Shown here: piece by piece, positions 1 to 36,120 of the stretch | How the letters are laid out: every line of letters begins with the position of its first letter | Position numbering within the stretch: position 1 is the first letter of the stretch | Origin: a virus | Strand: one strand, 5' to 3' | DNA: 36,120 nt | Virus record (IMG/VR): IMGVR_UViG_3300045988_120383 | Program-made: the position numbers and the translations under genes | The notes under the pieces: model-generated | The model's input: only the letters and a program-made list of their open reading frames with translations | Told to the model about the DNA's origin: nothing | The model's database searches: none

Positions 1-55
1 AAGAACTCGCTCGTAGAAGATGAAGCTAATTAAATAATGATAAGATGATGCAATA
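1..55. repeat. Terminal direct repeat, copy 1 (identical to 36066..36120); circular-closure overlap
   Basis: The first 55 nt (aagaactcgctcgtagaagatgaagctaattaaataatgataagatgatgcaata) recur exactly as the last 55 nt of the window. Confidence 0.9.
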
Positions 56-2365: not shown

Positions 2366-2464
2366 GTTATCATTCCTTTCTAAAAGATCTGTTTTCTGAC
2401 TCCGATTGGAATACGCAATAGGAAAGATGCGTTACAATTAAATACACCAAAAAGTAATTAATTA

Positions 2465-3346
2465 TCAAGCACACTCCCACTCAGCGTCGATAAAAAGGTA
2501 ATTATTTGTAGCTTTTGGGATGCAGAAAAACAGATTGCCGTTTGCTTTTGCTAAAGATGTACAAGCGACTGGGTTTTTATACGTTCCGTCTGATGCCACT
2601 ACATTTACAACAGTGTCATTTAATGGGCGATACTGTGGCGGTATCGAAAAAACATTGTCGTACACGTTGTTTGCAACTATTGTGGCAGTTGTATAGATTT
2701 CTATGTTTAGATGCACCGTTTTACCGATTTTATACGAGTTGCTTGCTATGGCTTCCCACACTCCTGCTCTTACGCCCAGATCCGTGGGCGTGAGCGTCTT
2801 TTTATCATGGTGAGCCTGTAATTGTAACAAATATGTATTTAACATAGGGATTGTCGGGACGCTCTCGAACATTTTTTCTACTTTTGTGATGCTTAACCCT
2901 TCAATTACCACTCGATAGAGCGGCATTTCCCTGATTTTTCCCGATTCGTAGAGGTTGTTTTGTGTCAGCGTCGGATCCGTTGCCGACCCGGTTGTGGATG
3001 CGCCCTGTTTGACCTCTAATGTGTAGGTGTCGATGCCACCTGTTCCCGTAGTGATGAATTTTGCTATGATGATGTCGTTTCGGTTTCTGCCGGATTGCCC
3101 GTTGACAATCTCACAGTCAATATAATCTCCGTACGGGATGCGGGCAAAATGTCCGCCTACTACGATAACTCCGTCTTTTACTCGTACTTTGTTGTTACTG
3201 ATCACCTGACTTTCACATTGCTGGCCGATCATCATGACCCCATCTGATCCGACAATGCTCTGATAAATCGCTGCGTCGTCTTCCGCGTAAATATGTGCCT
3301 CCGCCGCTGGGTCGGTATTGATTGTAATTCCTTTCAGTTCTCCCAT
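2465..3346 (-). CDS. Putative receptor-binding / tail fibre protein
   Basis: 293-aa ORF and the last large gene of the tail module. Coupled ATG directly abutting the upstream stop at 3347. No motif recognised; the call rests on position only. Confidence 0.35.
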   Translation of the reverse strand: MGELKGITINTDPAAEAHIYAEDDAAIYQSIVGSDGVMMIGQQCESQVISNNKVRVKDGVIVVGGHFARIPYGDYIDCEIVNGQSGRNRNDIIIAKFITTGTGGIDTYTLEVKQGASTTGSATDPTLTQNNLYESGKIREMPLYRVVIEGLSITKVEKMFESVPTIPMLNTYLLQLQAHHDKKTLTPTDLGVRAGVWEAIASNSYKIGKTVHLNIEIYTTATIVANNVYDNVFSIPPQYRPLNDTVVNVVASDGTYKNPVACTSLAKANGNLFFCIPKATNNYLFIDAEWECA

Positions 3347-4540
3347 CTAGTCATCTCCTTTTACTTTATATTCTGTTGTTGTTTTTCCGTTTTTTGTTTT
3401 TATGATTTTTCTAACGATCGGCTTTTGTAGTCTCGTTCCTGTAATTTCTTCATATCCGCCGACGATGTCGCCGATTTCCAAGTCGATCCCTTCTACGTTT
3501 ACGTCGATGCTTTTATAGTTTTGCAGCTCTTTTAGACGCTTTGCTCCATCCTCTTCCAGCTTTTCTTTGTCTGCGCTCGAAAACTCATAAACCGCTTCAT
3601 TTTCTTCAAGTCCAGTGTAATACGGGGTCTTTCCGATGCTCCCGTCCTTTTGGACGTATAAATGCAGAATGATCCTTTCTTCGTTTTGTCCTTTTCCGGC
3701 ACAGATTAAGTGATTCACGCCACCTCTGTAATCTTTTACGGTAAACTGCACCTCTCCATCTTGCGAGTATTCCAGCGTTTCCGAATAGTTTTTGATCTGT
3801 ACGGCTCTGACGGAAACGTATCCATAATCAAGGTTTTCCGGCTCAACGTAGCTGATCTGCAGGCGATATCCTTGAGCGCTTAACATTTTATCGACTGCAT
3901 CATATAACGTGACGTATCGGTCGATCTGCCAACCTGTGACGGTGATCCCTGCCTTTTCTTCCGGCACAAAAAAAAGACCGTCGAATCGGTCTTTGATAAG
4001 ATCTCTCAAAATATCGTTTAAATCTCCGCTTACTGTCAGGTGATCCTTTCCCTCCGGCGGTTCTATGATTTTTCGCTTTAGCAGTCCTCTCCACGTTGTG
4101 CCGCACCACACAATTTCTTGCGTTTTGGTCATCACTTCAAGACTGTTTAGGATTCCGCCGTATTCTGTTCTCGGTACAAAAATGCGATTTCCGTACCAGT
4201 ACCGCTCTTTTGTCCACTCTTCCTGCGGCAAGCAGATTTCAAAGTCGTCCGCATCTCCAAGATCCATGTCGATCGCAACGCTCTGATCTAAAAATCCCAG
4301 CTCTTCTCCGTTTTTTCGGGCAATGGTAAATTCTAGCGGAAATAGATCTGCATTTCGCACAATCAAGTCCCGAGTTTCTTCCGTTACTCCACCATTATCC
4401 CCAGTTGCGGTAATCATTACCGGGTAAACCACTTCTTTCGTTTTCGTTGCCGGCGCGTTTAGTTTTCCTTGATAGCGATTTTCTCCGATTTCCGGTAAAT
4501 TCTGCGCTCTCCCATTTAGCGCTGCTTCCACCCGCTCCAT
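3347..4540 (-). CDS. Tail tip/baseplate protein (Tal position; siphovirus Gp37-like minor structural protein)
   Basis: 397-aa ORF immediately after the distal tail protein. Its start overlaps the upstream stop by 25 nt. The call rests on synteny. Confidence 0.4.
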   Translation of the reverse strand: MERVEAALNGRAQNLPEIGENRYQGKLNAPATKTKEVVYPVMITATGDNGGVTEETRDLIVRNADLFPLEFTIARKNGEELGFLDQSVAIDMDLGDADDFEICLPQEEWTKERYWYGNRIFVPRTEYGGILNSLEVMTKTQEIVWCGTTWRGLLKRKIIEPPEGKDHLTVSGDLNDILRDLIKDRFDGLFFVPEEKAGITVTGWQIDRYVTLYDAVDKMLSAQGYRLQISYVEPENLDYGYVSVRAVQIKNYSETLEYSQDGEVQFTVKDYRGGVNHLICAGKGQNEERIILHLYVQKDGSIGKTPYYTGLEENEAVYEFSSADKEKLEEDGAKRLKELQNYKSIDVNVEGIDLEIGDIVGGYEEITGTRLQKPIVRKIIKTKNGKTTTEYKVKGDD

Positions 4541-26674: not shown

Positions 26675-26970
26675 CTATGCGTCCTAGAGGTTGCCGCCTC
26701 TTATGGGCGCTTTTTTGTTCTGTAAACGTCAAAGTCTTCGCGATTGCCTATGCTTCCCCACGATGTGATCTGATCGTTTTTTGTAAGTACAACTGCGTTT
26801 GTATAATCCTGATCGTATTTCAGGCACCATCCTTCGAGCAGTTCTAAGATGCAGTTCATTTCTTCTTCGGCGTCTTTCTTTATTTCTTCGTTCATTTCTT
26901 TGTTCACCTCCTTAGATCGGTCCTGCCTGCAGGATGTAAATAATCACAGCCATCACCGCATTTAACATCA
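26675..26970. repeat. Direct repeat copy A (about 296 bp) of the pair flanking the hexapeptide-repeat gene
   Basis: It aligns with 27662..27955. The 26830..26970 part is near-identical to 27817..27955; the remainder is more diverged. Confidence 0.85.
26701..26907 (-). CDS. Small acidic protein, duplicate A
   Basis: 68 aa. The first 25 residues are identical to the product of 27689..27892. RBS TAAGGAGGTGAAC. Confidence 0.65.
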   Translation of the reverse strand: MNKEMNEEIKKDAEEEMNCILELLEGWCLKYDQDYTNAVVLTKNDQITSWGSIGNREDFDVYRTKKRP

Positions 26971-26986
26971 CACTATCTTCTTTCAT
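26912..26986 (-). pseudogene. Truncated copy of the C-terminal TM segment of the 27897..28121 gene
   Basis: MKEDSVMLNAVMAVIIYILQAGPI*. Its last 18 residues are identical to the C-terminus of the 74-aa protein. TAATG overlap with the hexapeptide gene stop. Confidence 0.4.
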
Positions 26987-27630
26987 TACTCAACGTATTT
27001 TCTATTTCCTACTTCGTTTTCATCCTCTTCGAATCTGAGTTCCATCAGGTCTGCCAGCATCAGGTATTCTTGTGCCTTCTTTGTTTCTCCGTGTGTCTCC
27101 CGGATCTTATCCCGGAACTGTGCAAGCGTCCCGTAGAAGCATCCGCACCGCACACCCACGCCGCCATCTTTGAGACGGAAGAAGGTCGTTGTACGGTTGA
27201 CAGATCCGAAACCGTGAGCGTATGCATAGTCCTCATCGCTGCACACCAGCGCATTGCCGTACACCCACGCATTGCCGTACACCCACGCATTGCCGTACAC
27301 CCACGCATTGCCGTACACCCGCGCATTGCCGTACACCCGCGCATCGCCGGAAACCTGTGCATCTCCGTACACCCACGCATTGTCGTACACCCGCGCATCG
27401 CCGGAAACCTGTGCATCTCCGTACACCCGCGCATTGCCGTACACCCACGCATTGTCGTACACCCACGCATTGTCGTCATGACCAAGGTTTGATTCCTTCT
27501 CCACATACCCGCCAAGTTCTCCGGCTTCCACATCGCCGAACTCAACAAGGGCACGGATGCGGAACAGCTTTGTCCCGAACATATTTGTAATAAATTCATT
27601 TGTTAATTCAAATTTCTTCACTTTCTTCAC
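26986..27630 (-). CDS. Hexapeptide-repeat (left-handed beta-helix-like) protein
   Basis: 214 aa with 13 consecutive [ND]-A-[WRQL]-V-[YSC]-[GDS] hexads. These are flanked by an N-terminal LFRIRALVEFGDVEAGELGGYVEKESNL and a C-terminal VRCGCFYGTLAQFRDKI module. Confidence 0.8.
   Translation of the reverse strand: MKKVKKFELTNEFITNMFGTKLFRIRALVEFGDVEAGELGGYVEKESNLGHDDNAWVYDNAWVYGNARVYGDAQVSGDARVYDNAWVYGDAQVSGDARVYGNARVYGNAWVYGNAWVYGNAWVYGNALVCSDEDYAYAHGFGSVNRTTTFFRLKDGGVGVRCGCFYGTLAQFRDKIRETHGETKKAQEYLMLADLMELRFEEDENEVGNRKYVE
27241..27474. repeat. 13 x 18-bp tandem repeat array (coding)
   Basis: The unit is gcattgccgtacacccac, with point variants. All six frames stay open across it. Confidence 0.9.
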
Positions 27631-27661: not shown

Positions 27662-27955
27662 CTATGCGCCCAGAGGTTGCCGCCTCATTTATGGGCGCTC
27701 TTTTATTCTGCAAACGAGGTCTTCGTGATTTCCTATACTTCCCCATGATGTGATCTGATTATGTTTCACAAGCACAACCGCGTTTGCATAATCCTGATCG
27801 TATTTCAGACACCATTCTTCGAGCAGTTCTAAGATGCAGTTCATTTCTTCTTCGGCGTCTTTCTTTATTTCTTCGTTCATTTCTTTGTTCACCTCCTTAG
27901 ATTGGGCCTGCCTGCAAGATGTAAATGATCACAGCCATCACCGCGTTTAACATCA
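27662..27955. repeat. Direct repeat copy B (about 294 bp)
   Basis: See copy A. Confidence 0.85.
27689..27892 (-). CDS. Small acidic protein, duplicate B
   Basis: 67 aa: MNKEMNEEIKKDAEEEMNCILELLEEWCLKYDQDY... Confidence 0.65.
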   Translation of the reverse strand: MNKEMNEEIKKDAEEEMNCILELLEEWCLKYDQDYANAVVLVKHNQITSWGSIGNHEDLVCRIKERP

Positions 27956-32046: not shown

Positions 32047-32126
32047 AGATATAACCACTACGGTGATTATATAAAGTGGTGTTAAAGGAACAGGGGACAA
32101 AAGAAAGAGAGGGAAGTAAAAACGCT

Positions 32127-32873
32127 ATGAAACAAAAAGAAAAATATTTTTTCGATAAAAATGAGGTCATCGGAAATAAAAAAAGAGCTATAAAAACCCT
32201 TAATGAGCTGCTTGAAGCACACATTAAAAAAGCACCTGAAGACAGCACAACAGAAAACGATTCCCATCTCAAAAAAGTAAATCTGCTTTCGTATTGGATC
32301 AATACATATTGTAGATTTATTAAAAAAGAAAAAACATTTGATGCTTCAAAAAATAAAGTATACAAAAGAGGTGAAATTATTCAAGTTGACCTAGGCTTTC
32401 GTATTGGTCATGAAGAAGGCGGATTGCATTATGCGGTTGTTTTAAATAAAAAAGACTCCCCTTATTCCGATATATTAACCGTACTTCCTCTTTCATCTAA
32501 AAAAGAATATACCACACCTAATAAATTCACTATTGATTTGGGAAACGAAATATATGATAAGCTCCATCAAAAGTATATGCAAAAATTCAATAATTCAATT
32601 CAAGATGTGAAAGTATCGCCAAATCCGGTGTATGCCGGAGAGAAAATAACGATAGCTTTTACAGTAGATACAACGGAAGCCGATAAGGTGCAAAAAGAAA
32701 TTGATTTAATGAAAACTGGAAGCATTGGCTTAGTTTCTCAAATCACAACAATTAGCAAAATACGAATAACAAAACCTTTGCATTATTCCGATGCTTTTGC
32801 AGGTATAAAATTAAGCGATGAAAGTTTAAATATAATAGATAAAAAAATCTGCGAATTATATATTGGTAAATAA
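32127..32873 (+). CDS. Long MazF/PemK-fold protein with an N-terminal extension and an internal insertion
   Basis: KRGEIIQVDLGFRIGHEEGGLHYAVVLN, ILTVLPLSSKK and GSIGLVSQITTISKIRI match the three MazF core strands. ATG at 32127; the ORF-track GTG at 32076 is an alternative. Confidence 0.6.
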   Translation: MKQKEKYFFDKNEVIGNKKRAIKTLNELLEAHIKKAPEDSTTENDSHLKKVNLLSYWINTYCRFIKKEKTFDASKNKVYKRGEIIQVDLGFRIGHEEGGLHYAVVLNKKDSPYSDILTVLPLSSKKEYTTPNKFTIDLGNEIYDKLHQKYMQKFNNSIQDVKVSPNPVYAGEKITIAFTVDTTEADKVQKEIDLMKTGSIGLVSQITTISKIRITKPLHYSDAFAGIKLSDESLNIIDKKICELYIGK

Positions 32874-32888
32874 TTATAGTATAAAGTA

Positions 32889-32917
32889 TTGACTTTTGGG
32901 GCATACCAACATATAAT
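32889..32917 (+). promoter_or_regulatory. Consensus sigma-A promoter for the toxin mRNA / leader RNA
   Basis: TTGACT, 17-nt spacer, TATAAT. Confidence 0.7.
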
Positions 32918-32980
32918 GTTATAGAACAAAACACCTTAGCGTGTATAACATTAGGACAATGCAGTTTACCTGCACAACTT

Positions 32981-33007
32981 AGACCCCGTAGTAATACGGG
33001 GTCTTTT
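32981..33007 (+). terminator. Hairpin plus U4 in the leader (terminator of an ~85-nt RNA, or a 5'UTR structure)
   Basis: agaccccgta-gtaa-tacggggtct followed by TTTTA. Confidence 0.5.
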
Positions 33008-33137
33008 ACGTTATACGAAATATACCCGACACTCCCAAAGTCGCCGGAGCATATACGAAGGAAAATGTATTTACCAGGGTAGCCGGAGGACGAGCTTCCA
33101 CCCATTCCGAGAATCCTGTGGAGGGGGGGTGGTAATT

Positions 33138-33221
33138 ATGAGTACATATGAAGAACTCAGTTTGATCATAAGCATTGCGCTTTTGGTTGTAGCCATTCTG
33201 AATTATACGCATAAAAAATAG
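33138..33221 (+). CDS. Type I toxin peptide, BsrG/BsrE/TxpA (Hol-Tox)-like, 27 aa
   Basis: MSTYEELSLIISIALLVVAILNYTHKK has the MSTYE.L..MI hydrophobic-helix-KK pattern of B. subtilis prophage type I toxins. The SD GGAGGGGGGGTGG can pair with ccaccc at 33098..33103. Confidence 0.65.
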   Translation: MSTYEELSLIISIALLVVAILNYTHKK

Positions 33222-33315
33222 CCGTCCTGCCCTGACAAAGCTGACGACTATTTCTTATAGTTTTTTAAGTTGCACCGGAGCGGGTGAGGTGCAGTCACCT
33301 TCCGGCTATCCTGTT
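33211..33315 (-). ncRNA. Candidate antitoxin sRNA overlapping the 3' end of the toxin mRNA
   Basis: The TSS is inferred about 7 nt below the -10. The RNA is GC-rich and structured (ccggaaggtgactgcacctcacccgctccgg). A T6 run coincides with the toxin stop region. The 3' end is uncertain. Confidence 0.35.
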
Positions 33316-33321
33316 AAGTAC

Positions 33322-33349
33322 ATTATAGCAAATGTACCATAAATGTCAA
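33322..33349 (-). promoter_or_regulatory. Consensus promoter for a convergent antisense RNA
   Basis: The - strand has TTGACA (33349..33344), a 16-nt spacer and TGcTATAAT (hexamer 33327..33322). Confidence 0.65.
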
Positions 33350-33390
33350 CTATCTAGATTTTCCAAATAGTTAGAAAGAGGGTGTGATAA

Positions 33391-34284
33391 ATGGATGATT
33401 TTGAAAACAAATTAACTGAATTACATGATCGTGTTCTTAGTAAGGCTCTTACCGAGGATGAACAGAACAGCTATACCGAATCTTTATTTGAATCCATTAA
33501 ACATATCAATGAATATGGAGAGGAGTTTTGGTACGCAAGAGAACTTCAGCGTGCTCTAGAATATACTGAGTGGCGCAACTTTTCTAGAGTTATTGATAGA
33601 GCTGTAACCGCTTGTGAAAATAGCGGAAATGATGTCTTTCATCATTTTGTTGAAGTCAACAAAACGATAGATATGCCTAAATCTGCAACAAAAGAAATTA
33701 CAGATTACGCACTCTCCCGCTATGCATGTTATTTAATTGTACAGAATGGCGATTCCCGGAAAAAGGTGATTGCTCTCGGTCAGACATACTTCGCCGTAAA
33801 GACAAGACAACAAGAATTAATAGATAATTTTAACGAATTAAATGAAGACCAAAAGAGATTAGCTATCAGACGTGAAATGGCAGAGCATAATAAATTATTA
33901 GTAGAAGCCGCAAAAAATGCAGGAGTTGAAACAAACCTTGATTACGCTATCTTTCAAAATTATGGGTATCGTGGTTTATACGGTGGTATGGATGCAAAGG
34001 CTATCCATCACCATAAGGGATTGAAACCATCTCAAAAAATCCTTGACCATATGGGATATGAAGAACTTGCCGCTAATTTATTTCGCGCCACACAAACAGA
34101 GGCTAAAATTAAACGTGATAATATACAAGGGAAAGAAAATGCCAACCAGACGCACTATAACGTCGGTAAAGAAGTTCGTGATACTATTTCACGATTAGGG
34201 GGAACGATGCCAGAGGATCTCCCCACCCCAACTAAAAGCATTAAGCAGATCGAACGCGAGCAAAAGAAACTGGAAGATAGATAG
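33391..34284 (+). CDS. dinD: DNA-damage-inducible protein D (DinD family)
   Basis: WYARELQRALEYTEWRNFSRVIDRAVTACENSG, LSRYACYLIVQNGD, QTYFAVKTRQQEL, GYRGLYGG, ELAANLFRATQTEAKI and LGGTMPEDLP are DinD hallmark blocks. Confidence 0.8.
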   Translation: MDDFENKLTELHDRVLSKALTEDEQNSYTESLFESIKHINEYGEEFWYARELQRALEYTEWRNFSRVIDRAVTACENSGNDVFHHFVEVNKTIDMPKSATKEITDYALSRYACYLIVQNGDSRKKVIALGQTYFAVKTRQQELIDNFNELNEDQKRLAIRREMAEHNKLLVEAAKNAGVETNLDYAIFQNYGYRGLYGGMDAKAIHHHKGLKPSQKILDHMGYEELAANLFRATQTEAKIKRDNIQGKENANQTHYNVGKEVRDTISRLGGTMPEDLPTPTKSIKQIEREQKKLEDR

Positions 34285-36049: not shown

Positions 36050-36087
36050 CATCTTCTACGAGCGAAAGAACTCGCTCGTAGAAGATG
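36050..36087. other. Perfect 16-bp inverted repeat between the int and endolysin ends (candidate attP arm/terminator)
   Basis: catcttctacgagcga-aagaac-tcgctcgtagaagatg. There is no U tract on either strand. The right arm lies inside the 55-bp closure repeat, at 7..22. Confidence 0.4.
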
Positions 36088-36120
36088 AAGCTAATTAAAT
36101 AATGATAAGATGATGCAATA
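36066..36120. repeat. Terminal direct repeat, copy 2 (identical to 1..55)
   Basis: Exact 55-nt identity with the window start. Confidence 0.9.

Follow-up and report, generated by a model that had tools for sequence, protein, structure and literature searches.

Much is known of type I toxin-antitoxin (TA) systems from Bacillus, Enterococcus, Staphylococcus, E. coli and C. difficile, and a toxin gene of 27 codons falls below the length limit of most gene callers. Such a gene is present in the IMG/VR virus record IMGVR_UViG_3300045988_120383, a DNA of 36,120 nucleotides (nt) that is referred to here, at its full length, as the window. Positions 33059..33350 of the window probably constitute a self-contained type I TA cassette of the kind represented by TxpA/RatA and BsrG/SR4, composed of a 27-amino-acid (aa) Hol_Tox peptide and a convergent antisense RNA. 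The evidence, obtained in silico, consists of the membership of the peptide in a toxin family, the conservation of both promoters, four helices seen through covariation, and the assignment of helices to a strand through wobble asymmetry. No description of this subfamily, nor of any Lachnospiraceae type I TA system, was found in the literature.

The 'holin-like toxins' of Fozo et al. 2010 are the TxpA family, which has members in Clostridiales, and the E. faecalis gene EF3263, which belongs to this family, is accompanied by an antisense RNA of ~110 nt over its 3' untranslated region (UTR) (PMC2887945). The cassette in the window is similar to txpA/RatA and EF3263 in its Pfam toxin family, in the convergent antisense RNA of ~100 nt over the toxin 3' end, and in its seat in a prophage or prophage-like element (PMC2887945, PMC6563280). 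In E. faecalis, txpA/ratA adjoins mazEF (PMC6563280), and a MazF-like gene is located directly upstream here, but this neighbour is not conserved with the cassette. Other features are different: the toxin has 27 aa and ends in HKK, while TxpA has 59 aa; no similarity to txpA/RatA is detectable in the RNA sequence or in Rfam; and the 5' half of the antitoxin, unlike RatA, has the appearance of an inverted duplicate of the toxin promoter and 5'UTR.

The bsrG/SR4 system of the SPbeta prophage has in common with the cassette a Hol_Tox-type peptide with a KK(K) C-terminus, an antisense RNA over the 3' end, a toxin mRNA in which the Shine-Dalgarno (SD) sequence is partly sequestered, and an antitoxin terminator loop that is free for first contact (PMC3834814). 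SR4 extends the SD-sequestering helix from a distance, whereas here the SD helix consists of a conserved anti-SD of 5 base pairs (bp) with an inner hairpin, and an extra helix closes the 5' and 3' ends of the mRNA. Convergent RNAs, an intergenic hairpin and repeats present in both RNAs are also known from the par locus of pAD1 (RNA I/RNA II) (PMC4147584). The direct repeats of par give 5' complementarity, whereas the arms of the cassette are inverted and its two RNAs are paralogous; moreover, the peptide does not belong to the Fst/Ldr family and the central hairpin, unlike that of par, is biased to one strand.

Extent and distribution of the cassette

Relatives of the locus were gathered by degenerate DNA pattern scans of viral contigs and genomes, which returned 20 viral contigs with the cassette and at least 120 genome loci, nearly all from Lachnospiraceae (Blautia, Mediterraneibacter, Faecalimonas and Coprococcus among them). 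The cassette is thereby known from over 100 species-level genomes as well as numerous gut phages. Conservation and promoter counts given below refer to 107 unique loci, and helix pair counts to a whole-cassette alignment of 63 sequences. The conservation profile is a single, sharply bounded block, 33059..33350. On the left it opens with a -10-like hexamer and then (A/G)T(A/G)(C/T)TTAC; on the right the antisense promoter's -35 forms its exact boundary, and conservation ends directly after this element.

In five viral contigs (L003, L009, L010, L014/15 and L018) near-identical cassettes have unrelated left-hand DNA beside them, and the MazF-like and DinD neighbours of the window appear in none of the 120 genome loci listed. 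The cassette thus behaves as a module of its own, in which the toxin promoter is weak and the antitoxin promoter strong. Many of its contexts are non-phage. When the region was compared with deposited phages by blastn, the sole match was one of 35 nt, which falls in the terminator of a separate unit upstream, in phage phiRg519T2. The elements of the cassette are the following, and all the sequence elements listed in the first-pass annotation were found where it had placed them.

33061..33066, + strand: putative toxin promoter -10 box GAAAAT, with no properly spaced -35
33073..33315, + strand: predicted toxin mRNA of ~240 nt (5'UTR, open reading frame, and 3'UTR through the central hairpin to the 3' arm), with inferred ends
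33075..33089, + strand: 5' strand of the long-range helix, CAGGGTAGCCGGAGG, which holds agccggagg; seen by covariation and in the minimum free energy (MFE) fold
33098..33102, + strand: cis anti-SD CCACC, pairing with GGTGG at 33128..33132
33106..33122, + strand: inner hairpin TCCG...TGGA, between anti-SD and SD
33120..33132, + strand: SD region GGAGGGGGGGTGG, 5 nt 5' of the ATG, conserved in the family
33138..33221, + strand: toxin open reading frame (ORF), ATG start, 27 aa, MSTYEELSLIISIALLVVAILNYTHKK; identified by PF16935, phrog_9488 and an NCBI name
33211..33258, - strand: central long hairpin, putative terminator of the antisense RNA, covarying
33274..33306, - strand: 3'-arm hairpin (outer stem GCCGG/CCGGU, inner stem GGUGA/UCACC), putative 5' stem-loop of the antisense RNA
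33299..33313, + strand: 3' strand of the long-range helix, CTTCCGGCTATCCTG, whose bases are also the complement of the ~17 nt with which the antisense RNA begins
33315..33208, - strand: antitoxin RNA of ~108 nt, predicted from promoter, terminator hairpin and fold
33349..33322, - strand: antitoxin promoter, TTGACA, 16-nt spacer, TGc, TATAAT, with 12/12 consensus positions; right-hand boundary of the cassette

The toxin gene

The assignment of the peptide to the BsrG/TxpA-like (Hol_Tox) toxins, first suggested from the letters of the DNA, is borne out by the match of MSTYEELSLIISIALLVVAILNYTHKK to Pfam PF16935 (Hol_Tox) with 28.3 bits (gathering score 23.3, E = 1.6e-6), which is its only significant Pfam match at E <= 1, Class_IIIsignal being sub-threshold. 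TxpA and BsrG score 31.3 and 34.5 bits respectively against the same model, and the commonest peptide variant of the family scores 23.7 bits, barely over the cut-off of 23.3. The peptide and TxpA are 43% identical over the first 23 residues and have the MSTYE N-terminus in common. A second match is to phrog_9488, a 27-residue PHROG with function unknown, and an identical peptide is present in NCBI under the name 'putative holin-like toxin [[Ruminococcus] torques]'; the toxin ORF is already in databases and is not new. NCBIfam and PADLOC hold no model matching the 27-aa peptide, and tblastn of the peptide against phages and plasmids gave no matches. The program-made ORF list has the same frame as a 30-aa GTG ORF beginning at 33129.

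The properties of Hol_Tox proteins (fewer than 60 aa, one hydrophobic helix and a charged, Lys-rich C-terminus) are found in this peptide, which is laid out as a polar MSTYEE, 16 hydrophobic residues LSLIISIALLVVAILN and a YTHKK end, a pattern kept in 60 of the 63 aligned loci. In an alignment of 60 ORFs of 27 codons, the first, second and third codon positions have entropies of 0.37, 0.18 and 0.83, and codon differences are synonymous in 14763 cases and non-synonymous in 6840; this distribution of entropy, together with the synonymous excess, is a coding signature. A copy in the window's own phage type (L016/L033) carries a 7-nt deletion in the toxin ORF by which the peptide is cut to 15 residues, a natural inactivation of the toxin in an otherwise intact cassette.

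Promoters and predicted transcripts

The two promoters are of unequal quality. The - strand promoter proposed in the first-pass annotation, TTGACA-16-TGcTATAAT, proves to be a conserved part of the locus, being present at the homologous place in 88 of the 107 loci with TATAAT as -10 in 86/88 and TTGACA as -35 in 60/88, and with a spacer of 16-17 nt whose sequence is variable. In the 36-kb window, TTGACW-N16-18-TATAAT has two matches only, at 32889 (+) and 33349 (-), where shuffles give 0.05 expected matches and never 2. On the toxin side, the homologous hexamer is TATAAT in 38, AATAAT in 17, CATAAT in 6 and TATAGT in 6 of the 107 loci; GAAAAT, the weakest version in the family, is found in the window only. 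The surroundings of the toxin -10 mirror the TATAAT-GTACTTA context of the antisense promoter. By consensus match, which is not measured activity, the antitoxin promoter (12/12 and a TG extension) is stronger than that of the toxin, which has a -10 only.

From the internal -10, the transcription start site (TSS) of the toxin mRNA is predicted at ~33073, which would give a 5'UTR of ~65 nt. The predicted antitoxin RNA has, by construction, full complementarity over its ~108 nt to the toxin mRNA 3'UTR and the last ~4 codons. Its gene, as predicted in silico, is convergent with that of the toxin, overlaps the toxin 3' end and possesses both a promoter and a terminator. The toxin mRNA must extend to at least 33310, because the covarying 5'-3' helix described below uses its 3' strand there, and it probably ends just past the 3' arm, where the 3'-arm hairpin with its U-rich tail is, on the + strand, a candidate terminator for the toxin mRNA.

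Directly 5' of the toxin -10, a GC-rich hairpin is present in several relatives, as CTGCCCCacagGGGCAGGG in L003, L009, L014, L018, L035 and L053/L055 and as CCGGCTccgGCCGGG in L010. Neither of its strands shows a U-tract, its counterpart in the window (33025..33049) is degenerate, and it may be an insulator.

Helices of the two RNAs

Local helices were specified by hand and scored by pair counts against 500 shuffles and against slid partners. In these helices 90.7% of the cells are paired, compared with 39-53% after a shift of the 3' partners by 1-3 columns, and they beat 500/500 shuffles on five of the five measures. RNAalifold, applied to the toxin mRNA alignment, recovered the anti-SD helix alone. 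In this helix (94% paired) four of the five pairs show changes on both sides, for example UCAUCC/GGAUGA and UUCCC/GGGAA, and the earlier idea that the ccaccc element at 33098..33103 sequesters the SD thus has the support of covariation. The inner hairpin, enclosed between the two strands, is 90% paired, with two of its four pairs compensatory (CCG/CGG to CUG/CAG).

The length of the G-run within the toxin SD (33124..33130) varies among near-identical phage copies: the window has 7 G, as do several identical copies, but the run counts 8 G in L002, L012, L016 and L020, and 5 G in L009, L011, L014 and L018. This could be homopolymer change altering SD strength, or sequencing error.

A second helix of the toxin mRNA is formed over a long range. 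The segments 33078..33089 and 33299..33310 make 12 pairs that are 96.2% paired across the 63 sequences, with 6 pairs doubly changed, and column 11:273 contains all four Watson-Crick combinations (GC 25, CG 21, UA 6, AU 4); none of 500 shuffles reached the observed score. It is better kept than an alternative local 5' hairpin, which is 78-89% paired, and in the window it reaches 15 bp and is formed in the MFE fold of 33073..33318. The pairing of the 5'UTR motif agccgga(g/a)g with the 3' region of the toxin mRNA, which had been noticed in the letters alone, is upheld by this covarying helix. The motif count by itself is weak evidence, the significance coming from the covariation: AGCCGGARG is found in the window at 33081..33089 (+), at 33299..33307 (-) and at an unrelated site, 6084, with 0.38 expected and 3 reached by 2/100 shuffles.

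Toxin mRNAs closed between their 5' and 3' ends are known from hok/sok (fold-back inhibition), from H. pylori aapA1/IsoA1 (long-distance interaction) and from par RNA I (upstream helix). The long-distance helix of the cassette is similar to these and is likewise found alongside SD sequestration. In contrast to the hok, aapA1 and par locks, its 3' strand is found downstream of the point where the antisense RNA terminates, and the antitoxin 5' end has this very strand as its target; the toxin, moreover, belongs to another family.

Which of the two RNAs contains a given helix was decided by a strand test, since a G.U pair on one strand is an A.C mismatch on the opposite strand, and the two can be counted against each other. 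The counts, read on the + strand, are as follows.

Long-range helix: 157 G.U and 15 A.C, assigned to the + strand RNA
3'-arm outer stem: 5 G.U and 24 A.C, assigned to the - strand RNA
Central hairpin core: 3 G.U and 19 A.C, assigned to the - strand RNA

Because of this asymmetry, the central hairpin is assigned as the terminator of the antisense RNA and the 3'-arm hairpin as its 5' stem-loop. The inner stem of the latter is 100% paired, with four of five pairs compensatory. The central hairpin in the window has -12.2 kcal/mol on the - strand and -5.0 on the + strand, the - strand version being the more stable one in 48 of 63 loci, and its U6 tract is the complement of AAAAAATAG, which encodes Lys-Lys-stop in the toxin. 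It is taken to be the intrinsic terminator of the antisense RNA, which would be weak on the + strand and read through by the toxin mRNA. A symmetric bidirectional terminator was rejected in view of the - strand bias together with the covarying 5'-3' helix downstream. The convergent, 3'-overlapping design that the first-pass annotation drew from bsrG/SR4 and txpA/RatA is supported in silico by a conserved promoter at the boundary and a covarying terminator hairpin biased to the - strand.

The central hairpin first surfaced through a spurious microRNA (miRNA) match in an Rfam search. Rfam 15 gave no match in the window at gathering score, a chance miRNA match only at E <= 10 on 32700..33500, and no match on the homologous locus L035. 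The combined PF16935 and Rfam search that had been put forward as a check was thus positive in its first half, above the gathering score, and negative in its second, as no Rfam family matches the region.

Proposed mechanism and origin of the antitoxin

These elements can be arranged in a probable mechanism. The weak, -10-only promoter (33061..33066) would produce the toxin mRNA of ~240 nt, in which the SD would be blocked in cis by the pairing of 33098..33102 with 33128..33132. Pairing of the 5' end (33075..33089) with the 3' end (33299..33313) would close the full-length mRNA, protect its 5' end and probably make translation poor. The consensus extended -10 promoter (33349..33322) would in turn supply an abundant antitoxin RNA of ~108 nt ending at the central hairpin (33258..33211), which would pair with the toxin 3'UTR, and hence also with the 3' strand of the closing helix, in a long duplex expected to undergo cleavage. 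In the Bacillus models the duplex is cleaved by RNase III, and SR4 also acts on translation (PMC3834814, PMC6563280). Antitoxin pairing would moreover open the 5'-3' lock, with decay of the mRNA and no toxin as long as the phage DNA is present, and toxin would be made once the phage is lost or production of an unstable antitoxin stops. What we infer here comprises the ends of the transcripts, the toxicity, the cleavage of the duplex and its dependence on RNase, and a biological role in prophage retention or defence.

The antitoxin gene seems to have come from the toxin promoter and 5'UTR by inverted duplication: when the right arm (33270..33333) is reverse-complemented and aligned to the left arm (33055..33112), 40 of 64 positions agree (score 48; shuffles 13.5 +/- 6.0), over a stretch that takes in the -10, the initial transcribed sequence, the AGCCGG motif and the CACCC element. 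The likeness of the antitoxin CACCC to the anti-SD is treated as ancestry rather than mechanism. A bolder view is that the cassette represents a distinct type I design, in which an inverted-duplicate antitoxin, identical in sequence at its 5' end to the 5' end of the toxin mRNA, competes with the latter for its 3' partner and neutralizes by strand displacement; the unlocked closing helix would then expose the 5' end to exonuclease, instead of simple duplex cleavage or SD occlusion. We regard this as possible but rather unlikely.

Conceptually, little is added here to type I TA logic, the new elements being the inverted-duplication origin of the antitoxin and a 5'-3' lock that is targeted by the antitoxin. 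In practical terms, the RNA architecture of the cassette could seed an Rfam family and lead to better annotation of the 27-codon toxin gene, and the cassette could serve as a compact counter-selection or stabilization tool for genetically difficult gut Firmicutes. Lachnospiraceae dominate the human gut, and the cassette is widespread in them.

Weighing the alternatives

Several points weigh against an interpretation of the locus as a type I TA cassette. The -10 of the toxin in the window (GAAAAT) is poor and without a -35, so that some or most of the toxin mRNA could in this phage come from read-through of the U4 terminator of the unit upstream, although such read-through is not the conserved design of the cassette. 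At its other end, the toxin mRNA has no canonical terminator, the 9 nt that follow the 3'-arm hairpin containing a mean of 5.2 U. The search pattern fixed the first 11 residues of the peptide, so that their conservation is partly ascertainment, and the phylogenetic relatedness of the aligned sequences means that the shuffle counts overstate significance. Finally, Hol_Tox peptides are also annotated as holin-like, and toxicity in the family is host-dependent, even for TxpA (PMC2887945).

The first of these points leads to the explanation that was originally given for the 5' side of the locus, in which the toxin mRNA starts at 32889 and has a structured leader of ~215 nt. The hairpin+U4 would then act as an attenuator, with an RNA of ~85 nt and the toxin mRNA sharing one unit. 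Apart from the antisense promoter, the window has no consensus promoter but the one at 32889, which is on the toxin strand; the upstream hairpin terminator has four U only, the cassette's own -10 is degenerate in this phage, and the cassette follows the upstream unit in three contexts (the window, L053/L055 and L175). These are, however, the only contexts in which it does so. Cassette conservation begins at ~33059, with the cassette's own TATAAT directly upstream in most family members; near-identical cassettes in L003, L009, L010, L014/15 and L018 have unrelated upstream DNA; and the covarying 5'-3' helix begins 2 nt past the TSS predicted from the internal -10. The upstream promoter and terminator, for their part, form a unit found in at least 71 viral contigs, mostly without the toxin and with the integrase region directly following. 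The + promoter at 32889 and the hairpin+U4 are not part of the cassette, and the ~215-nt leader resolves into two unrelated adjacent units. A common unit for both RNAs is improbable as the design of the cassette.

32889..33007, + strand: separate small transcription unit outside the cassette, with promoter 32889..32917, an RNA of ~84 nt and terminator 32981..33007; absent in other cassette contexts

Another explanation would remove the addiction module altogether: the peptide would be a small phage membrane protein (holin-like, a factor of superinfection exclusion or a membrane modulator) tuned by a cis-antisense RNA. The family name 'putative holin-like toxin' speaks for it, as do the host-dependent toxicity of the family and the lack of toxicity of related small proteins in tests (PMC2887945). 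The gene is, on the other hand, located in the lysogeny/integrase region, among an S24 repressor, a MazF-like gene, DinD and a serine recombinase, and not in the lysis cassette, and the cassette is present in many non-phage contexts. Taken together, a toxin promoter that is weak beside the consensus promoter of the antisense RNA, SD sequestration and a 5'-3' lock are classic type I TA design, and a frameshifted ORF, as in one phage copy (L016/L033), is often seen for toxins. We hold a role of this kind to be doubtful, to about the same degree as the shared upstream unit.

A par/Fst-like arrangement has still less in its favour and is quite unlikely. Here the 5' part of the antitoxin, CCUCACCC, would pair in trans with the toxin SD, and the central hairpin would be a bidirectional terminator and the site of first contact, as par has convergent RNAs with a common terminator (PMC4147584). 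The alignment of the arms indicates that the 5' part of the antisense RNA and the toxin 5'UTR are paralogues, anti-SD included, and in the window CCUCACCC is complementary to the GGGUGG of the SD. But the arms are inverted and not direct repeats, which makes the 5' regions of the two RNAs alike and not complementary; the central hairpin is biased to the - strand; and the anti-SD-like motif of the antitoxin is buried in a helix of the antisense RNA that is 100% conserved. The trans pairing of the SD scores 4.59 of 5, the cis anti-SD 4.71 and the antisense RNA's own stem 4.95. Changes in the antisense stem (GGAUAG/CUAUC, GGGGAA/UUCCC) are not followed by the SD, and CCUCACCC was rejected on this ground as a conserved trans anti-SD.

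Lastly, the sharp boundaries of the cassette in many unrelated contexts and the significant similarity of its arms, both -10 regions included, might suggest that 33055..33112 and 33270..33333 are terminal inverted repeats of a mobile DNA cassette whose co-variation reflects concerted DNA evolution, but homogenization at the DNA level leaves the wobble asymmetry (157 G.U against 15 A.C, with the opposite bias in neighbouring stems) unexplained and neither a transposase nor a target-site duplication was seen, which makes this the least credible explanation.

Genomic setting and the upstream unit

Positions 1..55 and 36066..36120 of the window are identical 55-nt direct repeats, probably an overlap left by the assembly of a complete circular phage genome of ~36.07 kb. 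The host is likely [Ruminococcus] torques, from the NCBI record that names the toxin peptide, and the cassette is cargo within the lysogeny/integrase region of this phage. It is positioned in a stretch of accessory genes between an S24/helix-turn-helix (HTH) repressor and a serine recombinase, outside any lysis cassette, with the following neighbours.

32076..32873: 265-aa protein with a PemK/MazF toxin domain (aa 97-158), adjoining the S24/HTH repressor and directly upstream of the cassette
33391..34284: homologue of DinD (DNA damage-inducible protein D) with a Bro-N domain (NF008573, 418 bits), directly downstream of the cassette

The 265-aa MazF/PemK-domain protein matches phrog_1412, which is labelled 'antitoxin mazE-like', and no obvious separate antitoxin gene accompanies it. 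The DinD homologue matches the PADLOC candidate defence family PDC-S13 (E = 1e-119). The interval from repressor to integrase has the appearance of a cargo or defence islet.

The separate unit upstream of the cassette consists of a TTGACT-17-TATAAT promoter at 32889..32917 and a 10-bp hairpin followed by T4 at 32981..33007; the 35-nt match to R. gnavus phage phiRg519T2 covers the hairpin at 32981..33014. A promoter of the form TTGACW-N16-18-TAnAAT is found 68-84 nt before the terminator in phiRg519T2, in L053/L055 and in 54 of 57 newly added contigs, and the terminator is conserved in sequence as AGACCyCGTAGnAATrCGrGGTCTTTTACGTTA. The RNA bodies are of several types, ~84-105 nt long, with examples in L001 (~2400..2535), L053/L055 and L155-L211, and no Rfam family matches the unit. 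In several types the 3' part of the RNA body is complementary to the DNA around the -10 box. Lying upstream of the integrase genes of Lachnospiraceae phages, the unit may be an undescribed class of phage small RNA (sRNA) or regulatory RNA, or an integrase leader.

Targets of the 32925..33007 RNA within the window were considered and set aside as probably due to chance, the two candidates, a 16-nt identity and an 11-nt complement, having inconsistent orientations: 3617..3632 is identical to 32991..33006, in the terminator half of the unit, and 3740..3750 complements 32960..32970, both inside the ORF 3347..4540 (-). Rfam matches in related phage loci include a skipping-rope RNA in L159 (2800..2879, -; 46.3 bits) and a transfer-messenger RNA (tmRNA) in L185 (562..905, +; 138 bits), the latter suggesting integration beside tmRNA. 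Elsewhere in the window, 13 tandem copies of an 18-nt unit occupy 27198..27529, inside the ORF 26986..27630, and this array is flanked by a 237-nt direct repeat, 92% identical between its copies (26734..26970 and 27719..27955).

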